From contig CAWJLW010000006.1 in the NCBI GenBank assembly GCA_963843795.1, positions 806,001 to 870,000 of the forward strand: a stretch of 64,000 nucleotides of DNA, given 5' to 3'. Source of the DNA: an uncultured bacterium. Lineage in GTDB: Bacteria; Armatimonadota; Abditibacteriia; Abditibacteriales; Abditibacteriaceae. A program made the position numbers and the translations under genes. This document shows positions 225 to 63,709 of the stretch, piece by piece. How positions within the stretch are numbered: position 1 is the stretch's first letter; every line of letters begins with the position of its first letter. The notes beneath the pieces were generated by a model. It searched no databases. It was not told where the DNA came from and saw only the letters and a program-made list of their open reading frames with translations.

Positions 225-272
225 AAAAAGCGTTCTGCAAGTACTTGCGCAAGTACTTGCAGAACGCTTTTT
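225..272. repeat. 48-bp perfect palindrome containing two tandem GCAAGTACTTGC cores; terminator-like
   Basis: AAAAAGCGTTCT-core-core-AGAACGCTTTTT read directly. Confidence 0.9.
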
Positions 273-277
273 GCGCT

Positions 278-634
278 TTAAACCGCGCCACTGGTTTCGG
301 TTTCGCGCTGTGCCGAGGAATAACAGACCAACATTACGGCATCCTGTTCGTTAGATGCGCGCGCGTTGTGCCATTCGCCTTGCGCAATCACGATGCTATC
401 GCCCGCGCGTAGCGGGAAATTTTCGTCGCCGATGCGATGTTCTAATTGGCCTTGCAACAAATGCAATATTTCGTCGCAATTGGGATGTCGATGCAGAGTA
501 TTGGTCTGACCCGCGCGAATCGTAACGCGGCCTAAAGTCATTGTTTCAGAATTGGCTTTGGCGTGTGAAACCAGCCATTCGATGCGTCCCCAATCAAAGT
601 CTTCAATTATCGCGTCTTCAATTTTGCTGAGCAT
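278..634 (-). CDS. Cupin domain protein
   Basis: HRHPNCDE...G...GEWH cupin metal motifs; overlaps the upstream gene in an operon. Confidence 0.85.
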   Translation of the reverse strand: MLSKIEDAIIEDFDWGRIEWLVSHAKANSETMTLGRVTIRAGQTNTLHRHPNCDEILHLLQGQLEHRIGDENFPLRAGDSIVIAQGEWHNARASNEQDAVMLVCYSSAQRETETSGAV

Positions 635-1379
635 TGGCTTCCTTCATAAATTTATCTAAGAACTTTTGTGTGTCGGCTAGACTTTGTTGCACACCCGCAC
701 CACTTTCTTCATCAACACACAGCGGCCCGTCGTATTGGATTTCTTTCAAGGCTTTGAAAATTGGCGTGAAAGGAATTTCACCTTGTCCTAATGTTTGAAA
801 CTGTCCCTCAGAAAAATCTTTGAGGTGTACGTTATCAATGAAAGGCGCGAATTGACGGATAATGTCCGCGATAGACGTTTCGCCTGATTTCCATAAATGC
901 GCGGTGTCTATCGTCAAACCGACGTTTTCGGCGGTACTAAAGAAAACGCGCAAATCGTCACGCGTCATAATTGGTTGGTCGTAATGATGATGCAGCGATA
1001 ACATCACGCCATCGTGCGCGACTTCACCGGCGATTTTGCTCAAGATGCGCGCAAATTTTTCGCGGTCTGAATCTGTTGTTGCATCGTGCGGGCATCCGTG
1101 ACAAATCACCACTAAAGGTGCGCCAATTTGTCCGGCGAATTTGCACACGAGGCGCAGTTCATTTTGTCCGGCTTCATTCAATGGGCCGCCGCAAATCAGG
1201 CCCGCCGCGCTGCCGCGTTTCCACTCATTCAAATAACGCGCGGCGTCATAATCGTAGCGCGCGTATTGGCCAGCTTTGAGCTGCAAGTTTTGAAATCCAT
1301 AGCGCGCGAACTGCGAAAATAGTTCGCGCTGTTCGCTTTCATTAAAGGTTGGAATCGAAAAATGGCGTGCGTTTTTCAC
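618..1379 (-). CDS. Sugar phosphate isomerase/epimerase (xylose isomerase-like TIM barrel)
   Basis: HHH, DTAH, HLKD, LGQG..F and final E motifs of the AP-endonuclease-2/IolE-like family. Confidence 0.85.
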   Translation of the reverse strand: MKNARHFSIPTFNESEQRELFSQFARYGFQNLQLKAGQYARYDYDAARYLNEWKRGSAAGLICGGPLNEAGQNELRLVCKFAGQIGAPLVVICHGCPHDATTDSDREKFARILSKIAGEVAHDGVMLSLHHHYDQPIMTRDDLRVFFSTAENVGLTIDTAHLWKSGETSIADIIRQFAPFIDNVHLKDFSEGQFQTLGQGEIPFTPIFKALKEIQYDGPLCVDEESGAGVQQSLADTQKFLDKFMKEANAQQN

Positions 1380-2374
1380 GATGTCAGCTCTCCATTTTTC
1401 AAGTTCACCATTTGCCCGCTTTGAGCCGATTGATATGAGGCTTCCAGTAGCGCGATAGTTTTTAAGTTGTCGCGCCCACTATTGGCCGGCTTTATCTTGT
1501 TTTCTATCGCACTTAATAATTCTTCCAAACCGGCAAACGCGGATTCGGGCTTGTTCTCACCCGCATATTTTGCGTTATCCCAACGCTGCACTTCTTGGCC
1601 GCGCTTGTGCAAAGTGACGCCATTGTAATTCACAACCAGCGTGCCGGTTTCGCCGATAATTGTCGTCTCGGTCTGGTTAATCGCGCTGGAAAAACTTTGC
1701 GAATAGTTGGCGATGGTGCCGTTAGTAAATTGCAACAGCACATTGGCTTCAGTTTCGCCCGTACAATTGACGGAATCCGAGGAATGCGTTTGACAAAATA
1801 CCGAAGTCGCATCGCAATCTAAAATCCAGCGCAGGCCATCGAGCCAATGCACTCCCATCACCATCATGGCGTGGCGAGGTTGTTCGATGCGCCAACCGGC
1901 GTCCTGACGAAAAAACCAGTCGCAGTGCAAAATGTTGGAAACCGCGCCGATTTCGTCCCCTGCAATTAACTGGCGCGCAGTGTGAAACGGATAGTGAAAA
2001 CGAAAATTTTGGTCAATCGCCAACATTGCTCCGTACTTTTCGGCGACTTCCACCATCGCGCGCGCTTCCTCGTAAGAAGCGGCGAACGGTTTTTCGATGA
2101 ACAAGGGTTTGCCCGCTCGAGCCAAAGTTTCCACGACGCTTTGACGCACCGAAGTCGGCGTGCAAATGATCGCCGCGTCCCAATCGGTGTTTTGCAGTTC
2201 TTCAAACGTGGCGCATCCAAACGGAATATCGTATTCGCTTTGGCGTTTCTGGCGCATATTCGCGTCGGGATCGCAGGCAGCGACCACGCGCACGCGGTCG
2301 GGATGTCGTTGGCAGCCTTCCAAATGCATCGAAGACACGCCACCGCAACCGATAAGAGCAAGTTTGGTAATCAT
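1376..2374 (-). CDS. Gfo/Idh/MocA family oxidoreductase
   Basis: LIGCGG Rossmann motif, EKP and HWLD motifs; start moved to MITKLAL. Confidence 0.9.
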   Translation of the reverse strand: MITKLALIGCGGVSSMHLEGCQRHPDRVRVVAACDPDANMRQKRQSEYDIPFGCATFEELQNTDWDAAIICTPTSVRQSVVETLARAGKPLFIEKPFAASYEEARAMVEVAEKYGAMLAIDQNFRFHYPFHTARQLIAGDEIGAVSNILHCDWFFRQDAGWRIEQPRHAMMVMGVHWLDGLRWILDCDATSVFCQTHSSDSVNCTGETEANVLLQFTNGTIANYSQSFSSAINQTETTIIGETGTLVVNYNGVTLHKRGQEVQRWDNAKYAGENKPESAFAGLEELLSAIENKIKPANSGRDNLKTIALLEASYQSAQSGQMVNLKNGELTS

Positions 2375-2415
2375 AATTTGAGTGAATTTGTTTCTGCAAG
2401 TACTTGCAAGGCACT

Positions 2416-3552: not shown

Positions 3553-3765
3553 AGCCAATTATTATCGTTGCCAGCGCTCGGCACTGCCACTTATTACCGA
3601 TGTTACTCGCGGCAAGTACTTGCCGCATTTTGGAAAATTAAAGCCCACCTCCTAAAATTTTTCACCCAAAGGGTTACAATTGAGAACCGTTCGGGTATAA
3701 TCTTGCTAAATCAATTTACTATATGCGATTAGCCTGATGCATAATCGTAGCTCGACGAGAAAGAT

Positions 3766-4845: not shown

Positions 4846-4933
4846 ATATCCGTTTTCGAAAGATTAGGGCTTTCGTGGTGCGGTGAGGCCGTGCCATACC
4901 ACGAAATTTCAAACGGCTGCTTCGGAGGTTAGA

Positions 4934-5770
4934 ATGTCCAATTCAGCAACGCATAATTCTGTCACAAAGATGAAATCGAAAAAGTCGCTCCGTCACGGCT
5001 TCACGCTCATCGAACTTTTAGTGGTCATAGCCATTATTGCTATTCTGGCGGCGATTTTGTTTCCGGTTTTTGCGCGTGCGCGCGAAAACGCGCGGCGAGC
5101 CAGTTGTTCGAGCAATTTGAAGCAGATGGGCTTGGCTGTTATGCAATACACGCAGGATTATGACGAGAAATTCCCGACCGGTTTGCAGAACAACTGGTGG
5201 GAGCAGACGTGGTATTGGAATGTCCAGCCGTATGTGAAAAGTGTGGATGTGTTTCGTTGCCCGAACGATCCGGGCGGTGTGGGCAACAATGTCAACTGGG
5301 CCGGGCCGCGCCTGAGTTATGTTTCCAATGGTTGGATTACCTATCGCAACGGTGCCAATGTGATGGCGGGCGTGATGGGCATTTCGCAAAGTTGGGTTAC
5401 GCCCAGTGCTGTTTCGCTGGCTGGCGTGAACAACACAGCGGGCACGGTGATGATGACCGAGCGCGACCACGTTTATCCCAATGCAAATGGCGTGGCAGGC
5501 AATGTTTATCGTTGGGGACCGGGTTGTATGATTAGCGGCGGCACGATTTGGAGCGATGTGACGCCGAACCAGTTGCCCGATGGAACGCGCGCCAAAACGA
5601 CCAACCCTTATGATCCCAACGGCCCTAACGGAGCCGTGATGGCAGTTCATCTGGAACGCGCTAATTTCTTGTTCGCCGATGGTCACGTCAAGAGCCTGAT
5701 TCCGAGCCAGACCAACCCCGACCCCAACAATCGCCCACAAGATAATATGTGGGACGCCACACGTCCTTGA
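4934..5770 (+). CDS. DUF1559 / prepilin-type N-terminal cleavage domain protein with H-X9-DG C-terminal motif
   Basis: [68 protein letters not shown] before ATG 4934. Confidence 0.92.
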
Positions 5771-5874
5771 ATAATTGCTGTTTGAAAACAGTTCAATCTT
5801 TCCAGATTGCATTGCAAAACCGCCACGAGAAAAGCAGGCCGGAAATTTCGTCGGTTATTTTTTCTCGTGGTGCC

Positions 5875-6370: not shown

Positions 6371-7810
6371 ATGAAATCACTTTTATTTTCACGCCAACGT
6401 TTTGTATGCTCTATCGCCATTCTTTGTGCGCCTCTTATTTTTAGTAAGCTTTTCATTGAAGCGGCGCACGCGCAAAATTCCACCCCTTCCATTCCTATGA
6501 ATGCAACGACTTCAGTGCCGGCACCATCGCCTGTCGAATACGAGCGCTTGCGAGCGCAAGTCGATTACGCTTTGCAAGTTGATGTGCTGGGCCAATGGTT
6601 CCCACGCGCCCAAAGCGAGCAGGGCGGTTTCGACCAGATGTTCGACCAAAGCTGGCAGCGTGGCGATACCAGCGAACGTTCGCTGGTTTATCAGGCGCGC
6701 GTGACGTGGTTGGCCGCCCAAGCCGCGCTGCGCTATCCGCGCGAAGCCCCGATTTGGAAAGAGCGCGCTTTGCACGGCGCGCGTTTTCTGGCACAAATGT
6801 GGGACAGCAAAAATGGTGGCTTTTACTGGGCGCTGCAACGCGATTCTGATGGCAAATATCAGCCGCAGCGTGGCGGCGAAAAACACGTTTATGGCATTGC
6901 GTTCGCCATTTATGCCCTCAGCGCCGTTCACCAAGCCACCGGCGACGATTTGACGTTGCAACTGGCGCAAAACGCTTTCTACTGGCTGGAAACTCACGCT
7001 CACGACAAGAAAAACGGTGGTTACTACGAAGCCCTGACGCAAAGCGGTCTGCCAATCACTGTGCCTTTATCGGAGGAGCGAACTTCCGACGCCATCGGTA
7101 CGCGCTATGGCCACAAATCGATGAATTCGCACATTCATCTGCTCGAAGCGCTCAGTGCATTGCATCATGAGTGGCCAAACGCATTGTTAAATAAACGATT
7201 AAATGAAACTTTTCTTCTGGTGCGCGACACTATCGCAGTTGAGTCAGGCGCACTCAATCAATTCTTTACCGCTAATTGGAAAGCTTTGCCCGAACGCGAT
7301 TCTTTCGGCCACGACATAGAAACCGCGTATCTATTGATCGAGGCCGCTCACGAACTGCGCGCCAACAGTCCGCGCACCGGAATTATCGCGCGCGCGCTGG
7401 TCGATCACACTCTGGACTTCGGTTGGGACACGGAACACGGCGGCGTTTACGATGCCGGTGGCATTTTTCGCACGCCGCACGACGACGAAGACACTCGCAA
7501 AGTGTGGTGGACGCAAGCCGAATCTTTAAACGCGCTGCTTTTGATGCACAAACGCCACGGCGCACACACTGCGCGCTATTGGAACGCGTTTGTCAAACAG
7601 TGGAATTGGATACAACAATTTCAGACCGATAAGATGCATCGCGGTTGGTTTCCCGAAGTCGCCCGCGATGGCACGCCGCCCGTCGGTCGCAATAAAAGCG
7701 ATGGCTGGACTGAAGCCTATCATCAAGGTCGCGCACTTCTAAATGTCAGTGAAATGTTGAAAGAACTGGCTCAAAAGAAGGAGTTGCAACCAACGCAAAA
7801 TTCCTGTTAA
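6371..7810 (+). CDS. AGE-family (N-acylglucosamine/cellobiose 2-epimerase-like) protein with signal peptide
   Basis: QAR..W, KSMNSHIHLLEA, SFGHDIE, KVWWTQAE and YH.GR motifs. Confidence 0.88.
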   Translation: MKSLLFSRQRFVCSIAILCAPLIFSKLFIEAAHAQNSTPSIPMNATTSVPAPSPVEYERLRAQVDYALQVDVLGQWFPRAQSEQGGFDQMFDQSWQRGDTSERSLVYQARVTWLAAQAALRYPREAPIWKERALHGARFLAQMWDSKNGGFYWALQRDSDGKYQPQRGGEKHVYGIAFAIYALSAVHQATGDDLTLQLAQNAFYWLETHAHDKKNGGYYEALTQSGLPITVPLSEERTSDAIGTRYGHKSMNSHIHLLEALSALHHEWPNALLNKRLNETFLLVRDTIAVESGALNQFFTANWKALPERDSFGHDIETAYLLIEAAHELRANSPRTGIIARALVDHTLDFGWDTEHGGVYDAGGIFRTPHDDEDTRKVWWTQAESLNALLLMHKRHGAHTARYWNAFVKQWNWIQQFQTDKMHRGWFPEVARDGTPPVGRNKSDGWTEAYHQGRALLNVSEMLKELAQKKELQPTQNSC

Positions 7811-7817
7811 AAAAGGA

Positions 7818-7853
7818 AAAAGTCGTGCTGCAAGTACTTGCAGCACGACTTTT
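7818..7853. terminator. 36-bp perfect core-centred palindrome; bidirectional terminator between convergent genes
   Basis: AAAAGTCGTGCT-core-AGCACGACTTTT. Confidence 0.8.
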
Positions 7854-7891: not shown

Positions 7892-9739
7892 TTAATTTTG
7901 ATAGCGATAATTGAAGCGGCGCGGAGGCGCAACATCACCCTGCAAAAACCATTCGTCGATGCCGCCATTGATGTCGATATTATCGGCCCATTTGAAATCG
8001 AAAGCCGCGCGCGCAGTTTGTCCGGTCAAAATGCGCGGCAAGCTGATAGCGATTTCGTTATCGCCGACGTGCAACGGCACGCGCGCGATTTCTTTCCACT
8101 GATTGTTTTCCCATTTTTCAACCGAAGTTGAATCCAAGCTCGGACGACTGTTCAAGCGAAAATTGTAACCGTGCCAGCCAGTGGAAGCGTTTTGATCGGT
8201 ATCGAGGAAAAGCATCATCCAATTCCCATCGGCGCGTGGCGTCAGCGGCTCGCGCGTGCGCGCATAAAAATAAAACGTCTTTACGTCGCGGGTCGTTTTG
8301 GCCATTACAATGTCGTTGCGGCCACTGTTATCAGAATAGAAATTATTGCCCCAACCAGCAAAATTGCGGTGCATCGTGTCGCCAATATTATCGCGGTATT
8401 CTGGCATCACGTCGTGCCACTGCGCCCACGAACCCATAACATCGATAGTTTTGGGCGGAGACAGCGCGGGTAGAGCAGATACACCTTTGAAACGGCGAAT
8501 GTTGGCGATGAGTTGGTAGTAATAATTGTCGCTGGAGCCGCCTTTCATCGGGTCGGCATCGCGATTAAATTCGGCGTTATATAAATCGACAAAAAACGTA
8601 TCGCCTTCTTTCAACTCTTTGCCCGCGAGATTGATTTTCTGATTGGGCGCAACCGTGAAACGTTGCGCGACCCACTCGTTCCAGCCTGTCACGAACACCA
8701 ATTTCGGATCGACTTCCCACACGCGCTGCCACTGCTCGTCAAATTGCAAGCCCTTGTCGTAATCGGGCGTTAGCGAAAACTTGTCCAGTGGCGGCTCTTT
8801 GCCACTCTGCGTGCTGCGTCCGATATTTTGCCCGATGGGATGAGAACCAATGCCAACCGCCAGTTGCTCGGCCTTTTTCGGGTCGTCGTGCCAGCCATAA
8901 TTCTGTGGCGTTTTGTCGCGCCACGGCCATTTATCTTTGCCATCCCCAAACCAGCCTTTGGGATCGGTTTCAAACCATGAACGCCGCCAGGTGAAAAATT
9001 GCTGTTGCTGCTGCGGAATGCTGGCGCCTTCTTTGGTTTTCTCTTCGCGATTGCCCAGAATTAGCGGTTTCATAACGCCCTTGTCGTCGGGCCAGCGAAA
9101 CCACAATTCCGAATACAAGCCTTTGCTATACCATTCGTCCCACAAACGCTGCATCGTGGGCACCGTGTTGGCGTTCATGATGAAAGCGATTTGCGGGGTC
9201 GGGTTGCCTTCACCACGCATTGTGCGCGCAGTTTCAAACAGCACTTGCATCTCAGTTGGATAAGTGAACGCGTTGGTTACATCAACGAATAATGTGTCCA
9301 CGCCCGCGTCGCCCAAAAGCGTCAAGTTGCGTCGCGCTACCCATGGGTCAGCGGCCTGAAAATAACCGATTTCGGGTTCTCCCCACCAGTGAAAACTGCC
9401 CTGCGGCCCCCATTTTGGGTCATCAGGATTTTCTTGCAGGCGTTTGCTGATGTCAAATGGCCCCGGAGTGCCGTGATAACCTTGCCACACGAAATAAAAA
9501 ATTCCGACAAATTTATCTTTGCGCGGTGCGGGCACGACGAATGGTGTTTTCTGCCCGCCAAGCGGCAGCTTGCGACCCAATTTATCGGTCGCGACCCAAG
9601 TATCGGCACCCAGCTCGCGCCATGTCGTTACAGTTTTTTTGGCGGGCGTAGGCACGCCGTATTGCGCTCGTGAAGTGTCCTGGTTCATAAGAAGCGCGCT
9701 ACACAGGGGAAGCGCGAAGACAAAGTGCAAAAATTTCAT
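7892..9739 (-). CDS. Secreted putative glycoside hydrolase (GH99-like TIM barrel)
   Basis: Signal peptide from MKFLHF; VGIFYFVW, HWWGEP, DVTN and TGWNEW motifs; family assignment tentative. Confidence 0.6.
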   Translation of the reverse strand: MKFLHFVFALPLCSALLMNQDTSRAQYGVPTPAKKTVTTWRELGADTWVATDKLGRKLPLGGQKTPFVVPAPRKDKFVGIFYFVWQGYHGTPGPFDISKRLQENPDDPKWGPQGSFHWWGEPEIGYFQAADPWVARRNLTLLGDAGVDTLFVDVTNAFTYPTEMQVLFETARTMRGEGNPTPQIAFIMNANTVPTMQRLWDEWYSKGLYSELWFRWPDDKGVMKPLILGNREEKTKEGASIPQQQQQFFTWRRSWFETDPKGWFGDGKDKWPWRDKTPQNYGWHDDPKKAEQLAVGIGSHPIGQNIGRSTQSGKEPPLDKFSLTPDYDKGLQFDEQWQRVWEVDPKLVFVTGWNEWVAQRFTVAPNQKINLAGKELKEGDTFFVDLYNAEFNRDADPMKGGSSDNYYYQLIANIRRFKGVSALPALSPPKTIDVMGSWAQWHDVMPEYRDNIGDTMHRNFAGWGNNFYSDNSGRNDIVMAKTTRDVKTFYFYARTREPLTPRADGNWMMLFLDTDQNASTGWHGYNFRLNSRPSLDSTSVEKWENNQWKEIARVPLHVGDNEIAISLPRILTGQTARAAFDFKWADNIDINGGIDEWFLQGDVAPPRRFNYRYQN

Positions 9740-9833
9740 GATGAATGAGTTTTGGAAAGCGTAAAACAAACGTAGTTGCGCTGCAAGTACTTGCGCATTG
9801 ACAAAGTATTTCAGAGGAATTTCTGGCAAGTAC

Positions 9834-13546: not shown

Positions 13547-13600
13547 TTTAGACGCGAAAAGCGCCCTGCAAGTACTTGCAGGGCGCTTTTCGCGTCTAAA
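13547..13600. terminator. 54-bp perfect core-centred palindrome between convergent genes
   Basis: TTTAGACGCGAAAAGCGCCCT-core-AGGGCGCTTTTCGCGTCTAAA. Confidence 0.85.
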
Positions 13601-15203
13601 ATTCATCCATAATCAAAACGCCATCGTGAATGCGAAACGTGATGCGCGGCGGCTCAAAGTCGGGCGTGACTTTTTGGAAAAAGGTGCGGTCGTTGGTCAC
13701 CACAAACGCGCCGCTGCGGCGGGCTTCGCGCGCCAGAATTTCGTCAGCTTCCTGTCCGGGACGCGTGATTTCAATTTCACCCACGCGAATCATTTCCAAC
13801 AGCTCGGCGCTTTCGTCAATGTTGTGTGGCAATGAGGCATCGGCCACGATATGAATTGGGAAACAATCGCGGCGTCGCAGTTCATCGCGCATCGCCAGCA
13901 AGTGGCGCAACTGGCCGCGGCCGTAACGATCTTTTTCGTGGCGCGCCACATTCGAAGCATCAACCATTACGCGCGTAGTATCGGCAGTCAAAACGCGGCC
14001 ATAATAGCGATCCAACGAGCGCAACGCTTCCATAAAAACGCGATAGCCTTTTTCGTTGCTGTCTTTAAGCGTGTCTAAGGCCTGCACCAGTGGAAACACC
14101 CATTCTTCATCGTTGGCGTCGATACGGCGCTGCACTTCGCGCGGCGAAACACGAAATTCTCTCCCATCAGATTTCCAAATATAAAGCTTGTCGAGAGGTG
14201 AAATCACCGGCGTTTTTTTGGCGGTCACTTTGGCTTTGACCGGCTTTTCCACCGGTTTAATTTTGGCTGGTGTCGGCTGCAGTTCTGCCAATTGCGCCCG
14301 GACCTGAGTTAATTGCTTGCGCAAATCTTCGCTGATTTCTTGCTGACGACGCATCTGGCGCTTGCATTTTTTGTCGTCGGCCTCCAAATCCTCGTGTTCG
14401 CGCTGCACATGGCGCAAACGACGATTAGTGCGGTCGAGCGTTTTTTGGGTTTCGGCCAATTCGCTTTCGGCCTTTTCCGCTTTGAGCGTTTCGGCTTTTA
14501 ATGAACGTTGCAGTGATTTCATTTCCACACGCAACAATTCTTGCGTGCGCCGCGCGTTGTCGCGCGCTTGTTCCAGCGCGCCCATCAAGGCTTCGCTGCG
14601 TGCGCGCGCTTCGTCTAATTGCGTTTGCAATCGCGCGATGACGCGCTCATTGTTTTCAACTTCTGCAAGTACTTGCGGCGCGTTTTCTAACGAGTCGTTG
14701 GGCAAATGTTCGTGAGATGGTTCGATTTCCGGCGTAGTCTCGTCGGGATTTTCCAGTACTTCCACGGCATCGGCGATGCCTTCGATGGCATCGAGAGCTT
14801 TCTCTCGGCGCAGATGAGCGAGCGTTAGAATCAAGGCTTCGCCGCCATGCTGCTGCCACAAGTGCGGCAATTGTTCGATTAAAGCGCTATCTTCTTGCGC
14901 TTCGACGGTGGCCAAAATGCTCGGCTCGGTTTTCGTCCAGGCTTCGATGAGCGAACGCAAATCGTCGGGATTTTGTTCCAGATGCTTGCTCAAACGGTTG
15001 CGAATAATCGGCTGGCGTAGCGCACCGGTATTAGATTGAAAGCCGCGCGTGATGGTGTGGAGCAGACTGAGATTTTCGTCTTGGTTAAGCCATCGCCATA
15101 AATCGCGTCCGGCCAGAGAGCGCACCAGCCACGCCACGACTTCTGCGGGCAGTTCGCTCAGCAAGTCGTTTTCGGTTGGCGCAGTCGTGATGTCTGGAGT
15201 CAT
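13596..15203 (-). CDS. Coiled-coil protein with C-terminal NYN/PIN (Zc3h12a-like) ribonuclease domain
   Basis: VMVDASNVA...ADASL...EADE...FVVTNDRTF acidic motif set; long central coiled coil. Confidence 0.72.
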   Translation of the reverse strand: MTPDITTAPTENDLLSELPAEVVAWLVRSLAGRDLWRWLNQDENLSLLHTITRGFQSNTGALRQPIIRNRLSKHLEQNPDDLRSLIEAWTKTEPSILATVEAQEDSALIEQLPHLWQQHGGEALILTLAHLRREKALDAIEGIADAVEVLENPDETTPEIEPSHEHLPNDSLENAPQVLAEVENNERVIARLQTQLDEARARSEALMGALEQARDNARRTQELLRVEMKSLQRSLKAETLKAEKAESELAETQKTLDRTNRRLRHVQREHEDLEADDKKCKRQMRRQQEISEDLRKQLTQVRAQLAELQPTPAKIKPVEKPVKAKVTAKKTPVISPLDKLYIWKSDGREFRVSPREVQRRIDANDEEWVFPLVQALDTLKDSNEKGYRVFMEALRSLDRYYGRVLTADTTRVMVDASNVARHEKDRYGRGQLRHLLAMRDELRRRDCFPIHIVADASLPHNIDESAELLEMIRVGEIEITRPGQEADEILAREARRSGAFVVTNDRTFFQKVTPDFEPPRITFRIHDGVLIMDEF

Positions 15204-15318: not shown

Positions 15319-18198
15319 TTACGCCGCCATCAATTCGCGCAGCACAAACGGCAAGATGCCACCATGTCGGTAATATTCGACTTCAATTGGCGTATCAATC
15401 CGCAAGCGCACTTTGACTTCTTGTTGCGTCCCATCCGCACGATGCACGCGCAACGTCACTTCCGAAAGTGGCTTGATTTCATCCAAACCCACCACATCGA
15501 ACGTTTCGCTGCCGTCCAAATTCAACGATGCGGCGCTATCGCCTTCTTTCCATTGCAGTGGAAGAACGCCCATACCGACCAGATTCGAACGATGGATACG
15601 TTCGTAGCTTTGCGCAATCACGGCTCGCACGCCCAGAAGCCGCGTGCCTTTGGCTGCCCAGTCGCGCGAACTGCCCGTGCCATACTCGGTGCCTGCAATT
15701 ACAATCAAAGGCACTTTGGCTTCTTGATATTTGATGGATGCATCATAAATCGACATTTGCTCGCCATCGGGCTGATGTTTAGTCACGCCGCCTTCAACGC
15801 CGGGCACCATCAGATTTTTGATGCGAACGTTAGCGAAGGTGCCGCGCGTCATGACGCGGTCGTTGCCACGTCGCGCGCCATACGAATTGAAGTCGCCAAT
15901 CGCCACGCCATTCTCCTGCAAGTACTTGCCAGCGGGAGAAGTGGGCTTAATGGCACCTGCGGGTGAAATGTGATCGGTCGTGACCGAATCGCCGAAAATC
16001 GCCAGCGGCCGCGCGCCTGTGATATCGCCTGAGCCAGTGCTCTCGTCCAATTTCGCCGTGAAATTATCGAAGAAAGGCGGTTCTTGAATGTAAGTCGAAT
16101 CGGGATTCCATTCGTAAACTTCGCCGGTTGGCGCGGAAACTTCGTTCCACATCGGGCTAATCGCTTCGAAATCGCTATACATCCGCTTGAAAGTTTCGGA
16201 ATTGAACGCGGTTTTTAACAGTTCGCTGACTTCGTCGGTTTCTGGCCAAATGTCTTTCAAAAACACATCTTTGCCTTCTTTTGTCTGGCCCAGCGGTTCG
16301 TTGTCCAGATCAATATCCACGCGACCGGCGAGTGCAAATGCAACGACCAGCGGCGGTGACATTAAAAAGTTAGCTTTTACGTTTTGATGTACACGCGCCT
16401 CGAAGTTGCGATTGCCCGATAGTACACTCGCGACGACTAAATCGTTTTGAGTCACTACGTCTTCGATACGCGGATCGAGCGGGCCGCTGTTGCCAATACA
16501 TGTTGTGCAGCCATAGCCGACGGTTTGAAAACCAAGCGTGTCCAAAAATGGCTGCAAGCCAGTCGCATCCAGATATTCGGTCACAACACGACTACCGGGC
16601 GCGAGACTGGCTTTAACGGTCGCGGGGATCTGCAAACCCAATTCGACAGCTTTTTTTGCGACCAGGCCAGCAGCCAGCATAACGCTGGGGTTGCTGGTGT
16701 TGGTACAACTGGTGATGGCCGCAATGACCACGTCCCCGTGTCCCAAATCTGCGTTGCCACCATGAAACTCTTCACTGAGTGCTTGCGGGGATCCTTCGAT
16801 ACGGTCGGGCGCGGGCCGGTTATCTACCATTTCGCGTTCGGTCAGGGTCGAAGTATTTTTGAAATTCGACAGCGGATCGTGACCGGCGGGAATGTGTTCC
16901 TGATCGCCGCCACCTTCAACAGTGCGCGCGCGTCGAAAACTCAACGGCGTGATGAAGCGCTCGTTGACTTGTTCGGGCGTTTTGGCATAACCGCTGCGTC
17001 CGACTGGTGCAACCAAAAGTTCCTCGAAACGCTGCTTCAATTCGTCCAGATCAATGCGATCTTGCGGACGCTTTGGCCCAGCCACTGCGGGCACAATCGA
17101 ACCTAAATCGAGTTCCAAACTTTGCGAGTAATCAATGTCGCCTTCCTGTGGCATTCCATAAAGGCCTTGCGCTTGGAAATAATTTTTGAAGGTTTCTACA
17201 TGGCTTTCCTCGCGTCCGGTGGCTCGCAAGTACTTGCAAGTCTCGTCATCGACTGGAAAAAAGCCCATCGTCGCGCCATATTCGGGTGCCATATTCGCAA
17301 TCGTAGCGCGGTCGGGCAGCGACAAGTTGGCAGCGCCTTCGCCGTAAAATTCGACGAATTTGCCCACAACTTTAGCACCACGCAGCATTTCCGTCACGCG
17401 CAAAACCAAATCGGTCGCGGTCACGCCTTCGCGCAATTTGCCTTTGAGATTGACGCCCACGACATCGGGCGTCAGAAAATAAACCGGCTGCCCCAACATT
17501 CCCGCTTCGGCTTCAATGCCACCAACGCCCCAGCCGACGATGCCCAGACCGTTAATCATCGTAGTGTGAGAATCGGTGCCGACCAACGTGTCGGGATAAA
17601 AAACGTTGTCCCTTTGTAGCACGCCTTTAGCAAGATATTCCAGGTTCACCTGATGCACGATACCGATTCCGGGCGGCACGACGCCGAACGAACTGAACGC
17701 GCCCATGCCCCATTTCAAAAACTGATAGCGGCTCTGATTGCGCTTGAATTCCATTTCCATGTTCAATTGCAGCGCATTGGGCACGGACGAAAAATCGACC
17801 TGAACCGAGTGATCGACGACCAAATCAACCGGCACCAAAGGCTCGATAATTTTGGGATCGGCGCCGCAACGTTGCGCGGCGCTGCGCATGGCGGCCAAGT
17901 CAACTACGAGCGGCACGCCGGTGAAATCTTGCAAAACGATACGCGCGACGACGAAGGGAATTTCTGCGGTGCGTTCTTCATTGGGCTTCCAGTTGGCCAA
18001 AGCGCGCACGTTGTCTTCGTCGATTTTCTGCCCGTCGCAGTTGCGCAAAACTGATTCGAGAACAATACGAATCGAAACCGGCAAGCGTGAAATCGGGCCG
18101 ATGTTTTGGGTTTCGAGTTGAGGCAACGAATAAAATTGGGCTTGACTGTTATCGCCGGTGGGGAAAGTTTGCAGGGTGTCAAAAAGTGAATGGGGCAT
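15319..18198 (-). CDS. acnA: Aconitate hydratase A
   Basis: [32 protein letters not shown] and [10 protein letters not shown]. Confidence 0.98.
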
Positions 18199-21349: not shown

Positions 21350-21387
21350 CAAAAAGCGCGCTGCAAGTACTTGCAGCGCGCTTTTTG
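21350..21387. terminator. 38-bp perfect core-centred palindrome (left island boundary)
   Basis: CAAAAAGCGCGCT-core-AGCGCGCTTTTTG. Confidence 0.85.
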
Positions 21388-24968: not shown

Positions 24969-25016
24969 AAACCCCAAAAGCGCGCTGCAAGTACTTGCAG
25001 CGCGCTTTTGGGGTTT
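24969..25016. terminator. 48-bp perfect core-centred palindrome (right island boundary)
   Basis: AAACCCCAAAAGCGCGCT-core-AGCGCGCTTTTGGGGTTT. Confidence 0.85.
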
Positions 25017-35629: not shown

Positions 35630-36133
35630 ATGAAAAATCTCGCTAAAACTTTCTGCAAGTACTTGCAGGTCGTATTTCTAGCTGTAATATGTGCGTTTGC
35701 CACGCAAGCTGCTCAGGCACAAACTGCAGATTCCGGGCTGGCGCAGCGTTTGAATCACGAAATTATCTGCCCGTGTCCCGATTGTGGCAAGCAAGCCATT
35801 GACCAGTGCGCTCCTGGCTGCGCCGATGGCAAGAAATATCGTGAGGAAGTCGCGGCGCAATTGGAGCAGGGAGCCGATGAAAAGGGTGTGCTGAAGTATT
35901 TCCAGAAAACCTATGGCGCGGCCTCGCTGGCTTCGCCGCCGCAAGAAGGTTTCGGTATCACCTCGAAATGGTTGCCGTTAGGCGCGCTGTTGCTGGGCGC
36001 GTTGCCGCTGTGGGCCATGACGCGCAACAAAAATCGCCAAAAATCACTCCGTCGCAAGGAACCTGTTAAGCCGTCGCACGATGAAAAGGCCGATGATTCG
36101 CTGGAAGATGCTTTGCGCGATTTCGATTATTAA
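35630..36133 (+). CDS. CcmH/NrfF-like cytochrome c biogenesis protein
   Basis: Signal peptide, IICPCPDC...C...C, F..TYG and C-terminal TM. Confidence 0.78.
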   Translation: MKNLAKTFCKYLQVVFLAVICAFATQAAQAQTADSGLAQRLNHEIICPCPDCGKQAIDQCAPGCADGKKYREEVAAQLEQGADEKGVLKYFQKTYGAASLASPPQEGFGITSKWLPLGALLLGALPLWAMTRNKNRQKSLRRKEPVKPSHDEKADDSLEDALRDFDY

Positions 36134-52856: not shown

Positions 52857-55259
52857 ATGGGAATAGAAAAACATGCCGTATCCGCCGAATGGGGCGGACG
52901 CACTCTCACCCTTGAAACCGGAGTTTTAGCCGGACAAGCCAACGGAAGTGTCACCGTGCAATACGGCGACACCGTCGTTTTAGTCACTGCGACCATGTCG
53001 CGCGAGCCGCGTCCCGGCATCGACTTTTTTCCACTCACTGTCGATTTTGAAGAGCGCATGTATGCTGCCGGTCGCATTCCCGGCAGCCGCTTCATTCGCC
53101 GCGAAACCCGTCCCGGCGAAGACGCGATTTTGAACGGTCGCCTGATTGACCGCTCAATTCGTCCGCGTTTCCCGAAAGACGCGGTTAATGATGTGCAAGT
53201 CGTGATTACCACGCTTTCTGCCGATGGCGAAAACGAAGTGGACGTGCCGGGTTTGATTGGCGCTTCGGCGGCTTTAGTGATTTCGGATATTCCGTTTGAA
53301 GGCCCAATCGGTGGCGTGAAAATCGGCATGGTCGAAGGCGACTTGGTCATCAATCCCACACACGAACAGATTGAAAACGGACAGATGGAACTGGTTGTGG
53401 CTTCGGGCAAAGAAGGCGTCTTGATGATCGAGGCGGGCGGACAGCAGATCGAAGAAGAAACCATGGCTCAGGCCATCGAATTGGCCGCGCGCTTGAACAA
53501 TCAAGTGATTGATTTGCAGAACCAGTTGCGCGAAAAATGCGGCAAAGCCAAAGTCGAAATGCTGACGCGCGCTTTACCTCCGCACGTTCTCGAAGCCGTC
53601 GAAAGCAAATTTGGCGAACAGTTGCAAAGCGCGATTGCCACGCCGATGAAGGGCGAGCGCAACGAGGCGCTCGACAATCTGCGCAGCGAAGCCAAAACTT
53701 CGCTGGCCGAAGAATTGGGCGATGATGCGGGACGAATCGGCGCGGCCATCGAATATCTGGCCAAGAAATACACGCGTGCCCTTATTCTGAACAAGAATAC
53801 GCGCCCCGATGGACGCGGGCCGAACGATTTGCGCAACCTGACGGCGAAAGTCAGCCTGTTTCCGCGTTTGCACGGCACCGGTTTGTTCGAGCGCGGTGAA
53901 ACGCAGGTCTTGACGATTGCCACTTTGGGTTCGCCTGGTGATGAAAAAATTGTCGATTCGCTGGATGAAGTCGATGGCAAAAAGCGCTATTTGCATCACT
54001 ATAACTTTCCGCCCTATCTCCGTTGGCGAAGCGCGTCCGATGCGTGGGCCGGGCCGCCGCGAAATCGGTCACGGCGCTTTAGCCGAAAAAGCCCTTGTGC
54101 CGGTTCTGCCGACACAGAAAGATTTTCCTTACACGCTGCGTTTAGTTTCGGAAGTTTTGTCGTCTAATGGCTCGACTTCGATGGCGAGTGTGTGCGGTTC
54201 GACCCTGGCTTTGATGGACGCGGGCGTGCCGATTTTAGCCCCAGTCGCGGGCATTTCGATTGGCATGGTGCTGGACGATAATGACGACAGCAAGCGCGTG
54301 TTGCTGACTGATATTATCGGCATGGAAGATTTTTACGGCGACATGGATTTCAAAGTCGCTGGCACGACCGAAGGTATCACGGCGATTCAGTTGGATACTA
54401 AAGCGCATCACTTGCCCCTTGATATGATGCGCGATGTGTTCAGTCAGGCGCGTGAAGCTCGCATGACGATTCTGGAAACTATCAAAAGCGCGATTGAAAC
54501 GCCGCGCGAGACACTTAGCCAGTTCGCGCCGCGCATTTTGACGGTGAACATTCCCGTCGAGCGCATCGGGGAAATCATCGGTCCCGGCGGCAAAATGATT
54601 CGTTCAATTGTCGAGCGTACCGGCGCTAAAATCGACATCGAAGACGATGGCACCGTGTTCATTTCGTCTTTGACCGCTGAAGGTGGCGAACAGGCGTCGA
54701 AGATCATCACCGATATGGTGCGCGATGTGGAAATTGACGAAACCTATAAAGGACCGGTCACGCGCATTTTGAATTTCGGTGCGTTCGTCGAAATTATGCC
54801 GGGCCGCGAAGGTTTGATTCGCATCTCGGATATCGCGTGGGATTATGTGCCCTCGATTGAAGATGTGCTGAATGTGGGCGATGATGTTGAAGTGAAAGTG
54901 ACTGAAATCGACGATCAGGGCCGCATCAACCTTTCGCGCAAAGCGCTGTTGGAAAAACCCGAAGGCTATCAGGAACGTCCGCCGCGCGAAGATCGTGGCG
55001 GCGGAGATCGCGGCCCTCGCGGCGGCGGCGACCGTGGTGGAGATCGCGGCGGTCGTGGTGGCGGCGGCGGAGATCGCGGCCCTCGCGGTGGCGGCGACCG
55101 TGGCGGCAAGATCGCGGCTCACGCGGCGGCGGCGATCGTGGCGGAAACGATCGTGGTCCGCGCAGTGGTGGCGATCGTGGCGGAAACGATCGTGGCGGTA
55201 GCGGTTTCGGCCCGCCGCGCGAAGGTCGCACCAATATGGGCGGTTCCAGCGGACGTTAA
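52857..55259 (+). CDS. pnp: Polyribonucleotide nucleotidyltransferase (two apparent indels, near 54018 and 55109)
   Basis: RLIDRSIRP, HYNFPPY|SVGE, RREIGHG, SNGSTSMAS, DMDFK, KH and S1 domains; follows rpsO. Confidence 0.95.
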
Positions 55260-55273
55260 AGATTGAAGTCAGG

Positions 55274-58074: not shown

Positions 58075-58368
58075 CAGTGAATTTATCTTCAAACCTCTGT
58101 GCAAGTCCTGGCCAGAGGTGTGATATTTACAAGTTACGTTACAGGCATTTTTCCGGTGACAGATATAGATTTAACCCGAAGGCAAAAGTTACCTTTGCAT
58201 AGCAATTACTCACGATTTGATACCGCGCTACATTGCGCGATGGAGTGATCGACGCTGCAAAAATGTCCTGTTACGGGCTGTAAGTACTTGCACTCTGTGC
58301 TGAAACGGTTGGGCATTCTTTGCACTTTCGTCATACTCCATTGCCGCAACTTGAGCGGACAATCTTGT

Positions 58369-59763: not shown

Positions 59764-59774
59764 TTAAACGAAAT

Positions 59775-59814
59775 GCAAAAAGCGCGTGGCAAGTACTTGC
59801 CACGCGCTTTTTGC
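59775..59814. terminator. 40-bp perfect core-centred palindrome
   Basis: GCAAAAAGCGCGTG-core-CACGCGCTTTTTGC. Confidence 0.8.
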
Positions 59815-59977
59815 GTGTGATGTTGGTGAGATATTACCGCGAGAATTAACGATTGCTCGCACGTTGCAAGTACTTGCAGGGCTGAACGCGAAGTTGTGCA
59901 AAGAAGTGTGGGTTGTGGAACGCGGCGTGCAGCTATCTGTCGAACCGCAAATAGATAGAGACGATGGGGCAAATCTC

Positions 59978-62185
59978 ATGAAAAAATTTAAACTTGACTC
60001 TTGGCTACTAGGAAGTGCGCTGTTTCTCAGCGCGTGGATGTCGCCCGCTGCGATTTCTCAAACTGGTTCTCAAACCGGTAACGCCGCGCCCAACGCGAAT
60101 ATTTTTGTGGTTCGTGGCGATGTGAACGCGCCGCTTGCCAACGATTGGTGGCGCGCCGACGCGGTTTCTTTGAACGCGACCCGCGCCCAAATCGCGCCCG
60201 AAACTGCCAATGCATTGGAAAACTGGGTGCGCGATGGCGGTGTAGTATTTTTGCACACCGATGCCGCGCAGATGTTCGGTTTTGAAACCGTGCCCGCGCG
60301 TATCGGAACGCCACAACTGGCCGGGCAATTGTATGGTCGCGCCCGCGCCGCCGTGCTGGCTCCGATTCATCCACTTTTGTCGGGTGCCTCCGACAACACC
60401 GCGCCCGATCAGGATGGGAGTTTGGGCACTCTGGGTGTCGAAACGGTTTATTATCGAATGCAACCGGGCGATGTTCTGGTCACTCGCCATGACGCGGGCG
60501 TGCCTTTGCTCGAAGTTACCGATCTGGCGGTAGCCGATAATGGCCCGCCCTTATACGCTGCGGCGATTGCGCCTTATGGTCGCGGCTGGGCGGTTTTTAC
60601 GCCGGATACGATTGAAACCGAGCGCGCCGACGGCGCTTTGTTCGCGCGCAATTTAGCGGCTCTGGCTCTGGGACGTGTGCGTACTCCAGTGGAATTAAAT
60701 GGCGCTACGGCAAACGGAAGAAACGGAAATGGGGCTTTGGCCAATTCGAATCTGCCTCCCATCGCGCGCGGCGATGCCGCGATGGCAATGACATCGCTGC
60801 CAGCAGCTTTGCTGGAAACTCCCGATCTCACACCGGCCGTTTTGCTGGGCGCAATTAATAATGCTTTGAATTTTTCGTCGCCCGCAGATGCACGGGCGAA
60901 TGACGCGATCGATGGCGCGCCCGCTACGGATACGCCAAATGTGGACGCGCCGCAGCGGGTTCTGATGTTATCGCGTGGCGAAGTTACGGCTTTAGGTCAG
61001 ATGACGCAGGGCGCGGCGCGCGATGCCGCGACGGAGAACGCGCTGCGCGCAACGCTAGATATTTTGCGGGCACGCTTGGAATTACAGCGCATGGCACCGG
61101 CTCAGGCGGCGCGCCTGCTTGACTCTGCGGCGCAACTCGTTCCGCAAAGCGCAGAAGTGGCTTTGTGGGACGGTGTTCTCAACGCGGCGCGCGCTGCCGA
61201 CCGTTTGCAAAGTTCGCGCGACCGCGCCGTGGCCTGGCGCGCTGCCGCGGCGTCTTGGAATCGCGCGCTGCAAAGTCCGCCGCTGTGGAACAACGCGCAA
61301 ACGCAGAATGGGAATTTTATCAGCGGCATCGACCGTCGGCAGATCGAATATTGGCGCGCTCAGGCCGGACGTGCGGCGGCTTTGTCTGCGGTTGAACCGC
61401 CCTTGGTCACTCCGTTGGGACGCGGTCGCGATGCGGTCTTGCTACGACATTATCCCAACGATGCGATCATCGTTTATGCAGAAGCCTTTGGCCGTTATGT
61501 CGTGCAGTCGCAGGAACGCTTTGGTTGGCGCGCACCCAACGAAGAAATTCTGAGCTTTCCCAACGAGGGCCAGTTACAGGCTTATCGAGCTGCGGCAGGC
61601 TTGAACAATACGCCTGCGCCTAATCCGTTGGCGCGTTACGGGGATATTCAGGGCACCCGAATTTTGATGGTGTCGCAACCTGCGATTCCGGTGAATTTGT
61701 CCACAGCTTTATTGGGCGGTGGAATTCGCGGCCAAGTGCCAATTGCGACGCTCGGTGATGTGACAGCAGCCGTTTTGAGCCGTTTTCACGCGCAAGTCTT
61801 GGTTAATGCGCTGACTCAAGACGGCTCGCCCGTCCCGGGTTGGATTCCCTATGGCATAATTGCGACTTCGACCGGCCAATCGGTGAGAACGGGCAATTTT
61901 GGTCTGGGCGTGCCCGTTGAACTGCTGCGTTTCGCGCGTTTGGGATTGTTATGGACACCACGCCAGTTCGATAGATTTCCGTTGCCCCTCACGGAAAACG
62001 CTACCGCAGAAGCCCAGGCAGGCGCGCTGCTGGCCACTTTTTACGAGCGCTTCGGACGCGGTGCTGTCGTGCAAACTTTGCAGCGCATCGGCAGTGGCGA
62101 AAATATCGACAGTGCTCTGGAAGCCACCACGAATTTAAACGAAGAACAATTTTTCCGTGCCTGGGCCAGAAATATCGCGCCGTGA
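59978..62185 (+). CDS. Secreted hypothetical protein (amidotransferase-like N-terminus, TPR-like middle, peptidase-MA-like C-terminus)
   Basis: Signal peptide; L..WV..GG, HPLL.G and YGRG; P.W..G and C-terminal F...W. Confidence 0.55.
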   Translation: MKKFKLDSWLLGSALFLSAWMSPAAISQTGSQTGNAAPNANIFVVRGDVNAPLANDWWRADAVSLNATRAQIAPETANALENWVRDGGVVFLHTDAAQMFGFETVPARIGTPQLAGQLYGRARAAVLAPIHPLLSGASDNTAPDQDGSLGTLGVETVYYRMQPGDVLVTRHDAGVPLLEVTDLAVADNGPPLYAAAIAPYGRGWAVFTPDTIETERADGALFARNLAALALGRVRTPVELNGATANGRNGNGALANSNLPPIARGDAAMAMTSLPAALLETPDLTPAVLLGAINNALNFSSPADARANDAIDGAPATDTPNVDAPQRVLMLSRGEVTALGQMTQGAARDAATENALRATLDILRARLELQRMAPAQAARLLDSAAQLVPQSAEVALWDGVLNAARAADRLQSSRDRAVAWRAAAASWNRALQSPPLWNNAQTQNGNFISGIDRRQIEYWRAQAGRAAALSAVEPPLVTPLGRGRDAVLLRHYPNDAIIVYAEAFGRYVVQSQERFGWRAPNEEILSFPNEGQLQAYRAAAGLNNTPAPNPLARYGDIQGTRILMVSQPAIPVNLSTALLGGGIRGQVPIATLGDVTAAVLSRFHAQVLVNALTQDGSPVPGWIPYGIIATSTGQSVRTGNFGLGVPVELLRFARLGLLWTPRQFDRFPLPLTENATAEAQAGALLATFYERFGRGAVVQTLQRIGSGENIDSALEATTNLNEEQFFRAWARNIAP

Positions 62186-62277
62186 TTGTGGCACAACGAT
62201 TGCCTTATCACCGTTGCAAGTACTTGCTGTGCCGAATTGCGCAACCGAATTGCGCGCTGCATTTCTAAAGTCGCGTT

Positions 62278-63651
62278 ATGTCTCGCTATTACGATTACGA
62301 TGCCACTCCTTTCGAGCAACCGTTGCCCTCTCCCGATTGCACGTTGATCGTCCCGCTTTTGACCGCCTATTTCGATTTAGAAGCGGAGGGCGCTGATGCT
62401 GCGCGCGTCCAAAAGCATCTCTCTGGCTGCGCGCGTTGCGCGAAGATGTGGCGCGACTGGGGCGATGTGCGATTCATATTGCAAACTCTGCCCACGCCCG
62501 CGCCGCCTCATGCACTGGCTGCGCAAATCGTGCAAACGAGCCGTTTGACTAATATGCTGCCCGCCGCGCTGCCTACCGAGTTTGCGCGCGCGATCTCGCA
62601 CGATGAATATGCTGTGCCGCCACAACTGCACGAAACCATTCTTGCGGCAACCACGCGCGCGCCGGTAAGTTCAAAACGGGCTGTCAACGGGCGTTTGATA
62701 AGTGGTATCGCCACTGATGTCGTGACACAACACGATTTCGCGCGCCCTTTGCGCTCGCTGCGTCCTATCATGGCAATGGCAGCGGTGCCTGCACTGGCCC
62801 TTTGGCTCATCACGCTGACCGCAGGCAATTCGGCGCTTTTTGCGCCCGCTGAAAATTCCGAAACTGTCGCGATTTCCGCCCCGTCGCAAATGCCAGCAAT
62901 TAGCAAAGCGCCGCAGGATGAAACCGCCCAACCGCTTATCGCGCAAACCAGAACCGCAGCTTCTCTGCCCACGAGCGCAGCTTCCCAAAGACCCAGCGCT
63001 CCATCTGTGGTTGAGGCTGCACCCTCCTCGGCCAAGGTGAATTCTGAAACTACGGTCAGCCGCGTGCAACTCGAAAATTCCGTGGCTTTGGCGCGCTGGG
63101 TGGAAAGCGAAAGCCGCGCACCACAAGTTTCGGTGACTAATGCGCCGTCCACGATGACGATTAATCTGCGCGCTTCGCAACCGTTGCCTTCGTCTCCGCT
63201 GCCGTCAAAAGTTTCGGTTTCGGTCAAAGTTCAATCTCAATCCGCGAACATAACCCAAAGCGCGGCTCGTAGCAATGCGGTGGCTCGCACCAATGGCGCA
63301 CGCGTTGCTTTAAGGGCGAATGCGCCACGTCGTAGCGCGAAATTATCCACAGTCTCGATGACGGCTTCGGCGCTGTCTTCGGCAATGATGGTGCGCTCGG
63401 TTTCGGATGAAACTCCGCGCGTGGCGATGAAAATGGACGTGCCACCGATGCAAAAAGCCACCTTGCCCACAGCCGCCAGTCGCGAAGCCAGCGATGAATC
63501 GTTGTGGCAAAGCGACGTCGCGCCTGGTCGTTCAGCTCTTTCGGTTGTGCAGGCATTGAACGATAACCGTCCGCGCGAATTGCGTGACGCTTTCGACGCT
63601 TACGCGCAAACCCTGATGGACGATAGCGACACTTCGGCGTCCACATTATAG
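62278..63651 (+). CDS. zf-HC2 anti-sigma-factor-like membrane protein
   Basis: C...LL.AY.D.E...HLSGCARC; one TM; Ser/Ala/Pro-rich C-terminal part. Confidence 0.75.
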   Translation: MSRYYDYDATPFEQPLPSPDCTLIVPLLTAYFDLEAEGADAARVQKHLSGCARCAKMWRDWGDVRFILQTLPTPAPPHALAAQIVQTSRLTNMLPAALPTEFARAISHDEYAVPPQLHETILAATTRAPVSSKRAVNGRLISGIATDVVTQHDFARPLRSLRPIMAMAAVPALALWLITLTAGNSALFAPAENSETVAISAPSQMPAISKAPQDETAQPLIAQTRTAASLPTSAASQRPSAPSVVEAAPSSAKVNSETTVSRVQLENSVALARWVESESRAPQVSVTNAPSTMTINLRASQPLPSSPLPSKVSVSVKVQSQSANITQSAARSNAVARTNGARVALRANAPRRSAKLSTVSMTASALSSAMMVRSVSDETPRVAMKMDVPPMQKATLPTAASREASDESLWQSDVAPGRSALSVVQALNDNRPRELRDAFDAYAQTLMDDSDTSASTL

Positions 63652-63667
63652 AATTCGCTTGAATAAC

Positions 63668-63709
63668 AGCCAAAAACGCCCTGCAAGTACTTGCAGGGCG
63701 TTTTTGGCT
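63668..63709. terminator. 42-bp perfect core-centred palindrome
   Basis: AGCCAAAAACGCCCT-core-AGGGCGTTTTTGGCT. Confidence 0.8.

Follow-up and report, generated by a model that had tools for sequence, protein, structure and literature searches.

The window analysed here, a stretch of 64,000 nucleotides from an uncultured bacterium of the family Abditibacteriaceae, phylum Armatimonadota (assembly GCA_963843795.1, contig CAWJLW010000006.1, positions 806,001 to 870,000), carries the 12-bp palindrome GCAAGTACTTGC from one end to the other. This word is a real genome-wide signal of the kind represented by the DNA uptake sequence (DUS) and the highly iterated palindrome (HIP), no description of it was found in the literature, and it has a new structural feature, namely helically phased A/T arms on both sides. 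The signal lies at the level of DNA and is maintained by selection or drive; its copies repel one another over ~1 kb; and in relatives it is replaced by species-specific dialects, palindromic and non-palindromic, that belong to at least three word families. The arms run on for several helical turns, implying that a reader probably bends or wraps ~130 bp of double-stranded DNA.

The word is abundant in one lineage

Recounting confirmed the 45 exact copies that a sequence-only reading had counted by hand in the window (237..63694; Table 1), with none in any of 100 dinucleotide shuffles, and twelve near copies (eight with one change, four with two) stand where that reading had estimated about ten. 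The enrichment that it expected beyond the window is borne out. In the source genome (G000; 4.30 Mb, 92% complete, 11 contigs) GCAAGTACTTGC is the top 12-mer, with 2,567 exact copies distributed over all 11 contigs, and 506 one-change variants accompany them where ~30 are expected. The core is often extended by CT..AG, giving 879 exact 16-mers. GCAAGTACTTGC is a perfect dyad, and ~90% of half-sites in G000 are completed to the full dyad.

G000 has 2,706 occurrences of the 10-bp core; none of 400 other genomes of the phylum has more than 19, and the 12-mer is not enriched in them. The same 12-mer is abundant in other public metagenome contigs from relatives of 61-70% GC; because other public assemblies carry it, we reject an assembly artefact. 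Contigs of one sequencing run, possibly from the source sample itself, also match parts of the window, but the long pieces listed do not cover any copy and were given no weight. Scanning GTDB with the 16-mer gave at least 36 scattered single matches and, among the matches listed, no second enriched lineage; viral contigs held six single matches to the 16-mer, and one terminator-type copy gave no match in phage records. The claim that the word is lineage-specific and matches no described family was likewise upheld: an Rfam scan of the window returned tRNA only, and full-text literature searches, which left most subscription journals uncovered, found no description under the 12-mer, under the taxon combined with palindromes, repeats or motifs, or under new uptake sequences. 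PMC12375989 names the taxon, but no more than in passing.

Copies inside genes arose by substitution

We called 3,455 genes in G000 with our own gene caller, which places 1,818 copies in intergenic DNA and 749 in genes (3.0 versus 0.20 per kb). In the window, 35 of the 45 copies lie outside called genes and ten lie inside nine genes; one of the 35 (35655) falls within the open reading frame (ORF) 35630-36133, so that the earlier estimate of copies within at least ten genes was about right; its statement that most intergenic regions are occupied holds barely, as 1,625 of 3,060 spacers genome-wide hold a copy.

The 749 copies in genes compare with ~4.8 expected from the real proteins and their codon usage. 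They are biased in reading frame (494/141/114), the exact word encodes 86-90% of compatible peptides, and the proteome carries an imprint in the form of QVLA (565 versus 38) and ASTC (132 versus 4). When aligned with 163 orthologs of the relative G009, 28 of 33 sites were free of gaps and amino-acid identity at the sites was 0.39, versus 0.63 overall, indicating that substitutions created the word where the protein tolerated them. We also compared three public metagenome assemblies with 65-68% amino-acid and 64-66% nucleotide identity, taking in 80 of 132 loci. Here in-gene sites were exactly kept in 14 of 57, 4 of 64 and 5 of 14 cases, versus 2.1, 1.5 and 1.8% of control 12-mers. The different dialect of G009 occupies the orthologous position at 4 of 33 sites, which looks strong against a naive null but loses significance against a peptide-conditioned one (see Discussion).

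Copies are evenly spaced and scarce in foreign DNA

Along contig C6 (3.6 Mb) we counted 47-83 copies per 100 kb, with 30 in the mobile-rich first bin, and the density is flat over both GC-skew turning points near 1.5 and 3.5 Mb. The chromosome-organising sites matS, Noc/SlmA and parS are confined to, or excluded from, ter or ori; the even density over both regions does not fit a role of this type, and the comparison with matS, Noc sites and parS drawn earlier had to be dropped. Chi and KOPS have a strand bias tied to replication. No such polarity is possible for a palindrome, and the 42 ACCAGCCACGT sites listed on the 4.7-Mb contig of the relative G007 lie on mixed strands.

Among the gaps listed, the long ones fall on transposase-rich, phage-like or other foreign DNA. 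The most atypical tenth of 5-kb segments holds 1.16 sites versus about 3.2 per 5 kb, and small mobile-looking contigs carry 0.7-3.5 copies per 10 kb, versus 6.3 on the main contig. Two regions of G000 are motif-free: a 32-kb block at C3:2-27 kb, whose gene starts resemble what we take to be a contractile injection or phage-tail cluster, and the compositionally foreign contig end at C6:3600-3623 kb, which has VirB-like genes and is either an integrated element or a mis-join.

The mean spacing is ~1 copy per 1.6 kb, and gaps are evener than in class-preserving nulls (coefficient of variation 0.82 versus 0.87 and 1.18). From coding copies to the nearest intergenic copy the median distance is 1,040 bp, versus 674 bp for random coding positions. 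Close to their ends, genes hold 0.10-0.20 copies per kb if the adjacent spacer has a copy and 0.22-0.30 if it has none (pooled binomial p=5e-5), an effect that might be confounded by expression level or conservation of the genes. No kilobase-scale period was evident in G000 among pair distances of up to 20 kb, and no cluster of at least four copies within 250 bp, a possible mark of a reader gene, was found.

Many terminator-like hairpins contain the word

Of the 667 terminator-like hairpins that follow stop codons in G000, 441 (66%) hold the exact word, and a one-change variant is present in a further 53. The four terminator-type copies of the window listed in Table 1 fold with a GUAC loop (z -7 to -10.5). 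Since the hairpin arms differ among copies, and hairpins are missing from 1,177 intergenic and 670 coding copies, we regard termination as a co-opted use of the word. In the JAABUK/JAABUM relatives only ~8% of sites are hairpin-extended.

A/T arms are phased with the DNA helix

In coding copies, A-tracts lie 8-10 and 18-20 bases away from the word (z up to 16). AA/TT/AT dinucleotides recur with a period of 10.5 bp (10.25-10.75) as far as 60-70 bp on both sides, in coding as well as non-hairpin copies; the amplitudes are 0.041 and 0.053, whereas 100 controls with a matched first tract reach 0.010 at most. GC minima lie at ~15, 26, 36, 47, 57 and 68 bp from the dyad. AA and TT carry the phasing and TA hardly does, and none of five control words gave comparable phasing (amplitude at most 0.015). 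The phasing emerges when copies are aligned as a set, and no single copy can demonstrate it.

G009 shares the phase of the arms, as does the GC oscillation around sites in JAABUK and JAABUM contigs (0.015 and 0.011 at 20-60 bp; noise 0.004), with no phasing detectable in the small JAABUR set. In high-GC relatives the 12-mer alone gave no phasing of A/T dinucleotides, and GC phasing appeared with all AAGTACTT sites in two of three assemblies. The samples from G006, G016, G001 and G007 are too small for this analysis. HIP1 sites from a Nostoc plasmid (n=182) and from viral contigs (n=263) are without comparable arms: they gave 0.017, in the opposite phase, and 0.007, with noise of ~0.007, versus at least 0.035 for 200 sites of G000. 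Loci with the uptake signal sequence (USS) show the tracts already known downstream and no more than one or two peaks upstream (n=224 arms), and DUS loci have no clear phasing (n=155), both sets being prophage-derived and low in power. The phased arms suggest a reader that binds double-stranded DNA and bends or wraps ~130 bp of it.

Relatives use dialects of the word

AGTACT is enriched (2,813-4,733 copies) in 6 of 31 genomes of the class and rare (1-126) in the genera g2, g5 and g7. We read dialect words from sampled DNA, 15-60 kb per genome and more for G009 (Table 1). All dialects of the genera g1 and g6 keep the GTAC core. The words of G006 and G016 are non-palindromic and often sit in inverted pairs. 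In the sampled DNA of G006 all 26 inverted pairs are equally spaced, making a 22-bp dyad. A second, unrelated non-palindromic family, with the core CAGCCACG, is present in G016, G007 and G018 within one well-supported clade of g2. The sampled DNA of 17 of 26 family genomes had no such word.

In a tree built from the RecA proteins of 28 genomes (G001 and G019 gave no match, and the partial G011 was left out) the motif-rich g6 genomes group in a supported clade beside the motif-less G017, and G016, G018 and G007 in another clade; G000 has no firm position in it. Named homologs of a protein conserved in the family put the organism in Abditibacteriaceae, and with this family in Armatimonadota. GTAC is nearly absent (observed/expected 0.00-0.3) from many motif-less relatives in g2, g5 and g7, and CTAG is strongly avoided over most of the class.

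Table 1. Copies of GCAAGTACTTGC in the window and dialect words of relatives
Feature	Position in window, or source	Details
Exact copies (start positions)	237, 249, 2396, 3612, 6254, 6337, 7830, 9783, 9826, 13568, 14665, 15918, 17226, 18273, 18336, 21363, 24987, 25391, 27850, 28013, 29921, 31102, 32714, 33383, 35655, 39469, 39791, 39890, 41785, 43058, 44785, 45961, 46789, 47429, 48093, 49798, 50151, 51095, 51320, 56606, 56735, 59789, 59866, 62216, 63683	
Head-to-tail double copy	237..260	within a single hairpin
Near copies, one change (n=8)	20333, 26306, 32546, 38255, 41921, 51390, 55315, 58280	
Near copies, two changes (n=4)	28001, 30979, 31115, 58101	
Terminator-type copy	7815..7853	between convergent genes 6371-7810(+) and 7892-9829(-); z -8.0
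Terminator-type copy	21350..21387	after oppB-like gene; perfect hairpin, GUAC loop at top, A/U tracts on both sides; z -7.0
Terminator-type copy	24969..25016	22-bp stem; z -10.5
Terminator-type copy	63668..63709	after gene 62278-63651; z -7.2
In-gene copy	14665..14676	ORF 13596-15203(-); no extended hairpin, z 0.4
Example element, core and phased arms	14600..14741	~130-140 bp
Two in-gene copies	15918, 17226	aconitase acnA 15319-18198(-)
Further in-gene copies	27850, 39469, 44785, 47429, 48093, 49798, 51095	27850 in pgl; 49798 in SDR (short-chain dehydrogenase/reductase) oxidoreductase
Dialect	G001	CAAAGTACTTTG
Dialect	G009, G015, G019	TCGAGTACTCGA
Dialect	G012	GAGTACTC
Dialect	JAABUK/JAABUM contigs	CAAGTACTTG
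Dialect, non-palindromic	G006	AGTACGGTCGA; 10-mer GTACGGTCGA 1,473+1,508, ~2,981 copies
Dialect, non-palindromic	G016	ACCAGCCACGT; 1,010+1,074 = 2,084 copies of 11-mer

Two observations concern other genes of G000. Polynucleotide phosphorylase (window 52857-55266) is split into two overlapping ORFs, probably by an assembly indel, as ~10-12% of G000 orthologs show a frame change. The 16S gene (locus L005, C6:24.2-27.2 kb) has no 23S Rfam match in the next 1.5 kb, and the rRNA genes are possibly unlinked.

Discussion

To our knowledge, sequence-specific DNA uptake is established only in Neisseriaceae and Pasteurellaceae, with HIP1 as a debated third case. The in-gene copies built by substitution, the spacing of about one copy per fragment, the scarcity in new DNA, the take-over of terminators and the species-level dialects, inverted non-palindromic pairs included, are traits of uptake sequences, which makes uptake the most likely of the readings we considered. 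We thus propose on sequence grounds, with confidence that is evenly balanced, that the 12-mer may form the centre of a tag for self-DNA with a function like that of DUS or USS; membership in DUS or USS itself is not claimed. Of the systems named by the sequence-only reading (a methylation-coupled signal, an uptake tag or a nucleoid-protein site, specific to the lineage), the uptake tag fits best and the methylation model loses ground.

In such a system a receptor on the cell surface, belonging to the type IV pilus or competence machinery, would bind the dyad in double-stranded DNA and bend the DNA sharply, assisted by the phased arms. Preferential uptake and RecA recombination would then add copies to the genome by drive, and dialects would arise as the receptor drifts. 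G000 has the competence set ComEC, ComEA, PilB/PilT, secretins, DprA and RecA, and its pil operon (C6:385-402 kb) encodes four minor pilins and a PilX-like protein, which are receptor candidates only; the pilins have N-methyl/DUF1559 matches only. Genome-wide there are ~30 DUF1559-type prepilin proteins, one of them at 4883-5770 of the window.

Both DUS (Neisseriaceae, read by ComP) and USS (Pasteurellaceae) resemble the Abditibacteriaceae word in having thousands of copies, one per 1-2 kb, that are scarce in foreign DNA, in the in-gene copies with frame bias and proteome imprint, in the association with terminators, and in dialects around a conserved core, with inverted pairs in the non-palindromic relatives G006 and G016. 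USS shares the flanking A/T tracts in addition. USS occurs about once per kb (PMC7811141), the same gap-free, low-identity pattern is reported for uptake sequences in genes (PMC2817400), about half of the DUES sequences lie in terminators (bioRxiv 2025.10.24.684340), and eight dialects as well as overlapping dyad pairs are described for DUS (PMC3630211). The word of G000 differs in its unrelated sequence and phylum, in a core that is a true palindrome, and in arms phased on both sides for 5-6 turns.

Several points weigh against an uptake tag. The core words of DUS and USS are non-palindromic (PMC1939737), whereas the word of G000 is a perfect dyad, although its relatives G006 and G016 have non-palindromic words, and the arms of G000 reach beyond what the low-powered, prophage-derived USS and DUS loci showed. 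The motif-less genomes G002 and G010 have the same competence genes and pil operon, and DprA is found in 29 of 31 genomes. The three minor pilins that were aligned are not enriched in basic residues and match no ComP-like family. In G000, frameshifts interrupt pilC, pilD and the gene for the PilX-like protein, though at close to the assembly-wide rate (3 of 10 genes versus 27 of 226). Under a peptide-conditioned null, the positions shared with the G009 dialect are not significant (6 of 35 versus 4.1). For the relatives with the same core (31 of 59 shared positions versus 26.5, and 27 of 61 versus 25.9), the peptide-conditioned null is circular. Finally, among the literature listed we found no report of transformation for this group.

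Because of the long arms, a protein that wraps DNA inside the cell is still a serious rival to uptake, if a rather unlikely one. In this case a probably dimeric, chromosome-organising protein would wrap ~130 bp at ~1.6-kb intervals, nucleosome-like and positioned by sequence. This would accommodate the strict dyad, the AA/TT phasing that coding and non-coding copies alike maintain for 60-70 bp outward of the dyad, its identical phase in G009 and in the JAABUK/JAABUM contigs, and a spacing evener than the nulls. A/T peaks at half-integer turns have the geometry of a continuous wrap, such as that of nucleosomes. A nucleoid-protein site, as proposed earlier, is therefore kept as a candidate by the phased arms, even though roles like those of matS, Noc or parS do not fit. 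No protein stands out for the task: the histone fold PF00808 was absent from all five genomes searched, each genome has a single HU, with or without the motif, and G000 has no match to the ribbon-helix-helix family RHH_1. Non-palindromic dialects, a full turnover of the word between species and the recoding of ~750 protein positions for redundant sites would be hard to square with a housekeeping protein. In addition, 17 of 26 family genomes have no such word in the sampled DNA. A further idea, which we hold only tentatively, is that a non-histone protein, on the pilus or in the nucleoid, may wrap DNA in a new, sequence-programmed manner, ~130 bp of phased DNA per species-specific 8-12-bp word at ~1.6-kb intervals, rewriting proteins and terminators genome-wide, with the word changing between species.

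It is quite improbable that the word is a signal of the HIP1 type, in which an orphan methyltransferase would mark GTAC or AGTACT, with methyl-directed repair or recombination creating and using the sites; as a role in transformation is possible for HIP1 too, this explanation overlaps with uptake. HIP1 (GCGATCGC, cyanobacteria) is likewise a hyper-abundant selected palindrome with palindromic, lineage-specific extensions, lineage-specific alternatives and an orphan methyltransferase (PMC4390886, PMC5861425, PMC13756078, bioRxiv 2024.09.10.611283). A single orphan beta-class N6/N4 methyltransferase (L085, C6:2517365-2518135) is indeed family-wide in type, being present in 9 of 13 family genomes and in none of the 137 other phylum genomes searched, with RsrI, MboIIA and CcrM as closest solved relatives, and both the GTAC kept by all g1/g6 dialects and its near absence from many motif-less relatives (observed/expected 0.00-0.3) would suit a marked site. 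The enzyme, however, does not track the word, as some motif-less genomes have it and the search did not find it in G002, G010, G013 or the motif-rich G016, nor does GTAC avoidance track the enzyme. Neither a 5-methylcytosine nor a D12-class (Dam-type) methyltransferase was found in G000, a PADLOC scan gave generic type II matches only, and a GTAC-specific family of orphan methyltransferases is not reported in the main text of Blow et al. 2016, which contains no occurrence of GTAC. The word and the non-cyanobacterial host also differ from HIP1, as do the species-level turnover, the non-palindromic words of G006 and G016, the strong use in terminators and the phased arms; in the HIP1 samples hairpin extension is almost lacking (2 of 182 and 3 of 263 sites).

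Very unlikely, in our view, is a strong DNA gyrase site, whose cleavage core (-4..+8) would be the 12 bp and whose arms would wrap the GyrA C-terminal domains downstream of genes. The gyrase motif of E. coli is symmetric and periodic over 130 bp (PMC6379681), with arms periodic at 10.5-10.75 bp and a core with -4G, -2A and +1G (PMC6379681, PMC12324340, PMC13284261), and GCAAGTACTTGC fits -4G/+8C, -2A/+6T and +1G/+4C, that is all three independent positions (PMC12324340). The density of copies in spacers (convergent 4.17, tandem 3.24, divergent 1.84 per kb) also speaks for such a site, and 28 of 31 genomes have a single GyrA-type match each, with no second (ParC-like) match. The arms centred on the dyad are, on the other hand, out of phase with the published E. 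coli matrix (r=-0.53; best fit at a shift of 4 bp), A is least favoured at -1 in that matrix, and the dialects of G001 and G009 break the core rule, fitting two and one of the three positions. Gyrase has no strict site, whereas the 12-bp core of G000 is invariant, and no change in GyrA tracks the motif in the part of the alignment examined. Most family members have an insertion of 11-16 residues in the GyrA coiled-coil region, missing in G003, G017 and the outgroups.

We reject, as most improbable, a mobile repeat like the repetitive extragenic palindromic (REP) sequences, spread by a REP-associated tyrosine transposase (RAYT) or an Ssn-type nuclease. REP/BIME sequences with RAYT, and Neisseria NTS with Ssn, are intergenic palindromes after stop codons. 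The copies of G000 are likewise 71% intergenic and often hairpins after stop codons, and the genome has two RAYT-like HUH genes (C6:631-632 kb and 751-752 kb). These genes, of a kind proposed earlier as possible companions of the word, are flanked by their own longer palindromic repeats (GTAG-type at one), from which the 12-mer is missing, and no small GIY-YIG gene was found in G000. The word, moreover, has no fixed long consensus, as the arms of copies vary, and no insertion signature, as in-gene copies align without indels, and it is abundant in genes. An RNA-level terminator motif as the sole role, suggested by the 66% of terminator-like hairpins that carry the word, is scarcely credible and is refuted by the copies without hairpin, next to the low hairpin share in JAABUK/JAABUM and a helical phasing that is a feature of double-stranded DNA.

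If the proposed self-DNA tag is real, Armatimonadota would have an independent uptake-tag system that comprises three or more word families, has been gained and lost inside a single family, and uses palindromic as well as non-palindromic dialects. This would offer natural replicates for how tags arise, for drive versus selection, and for the co-evolution of receptor and word. The long phased arms provide a measurable handle on the reader, predicting a wrapped footprint of ~130 bp and a requirement for bending.

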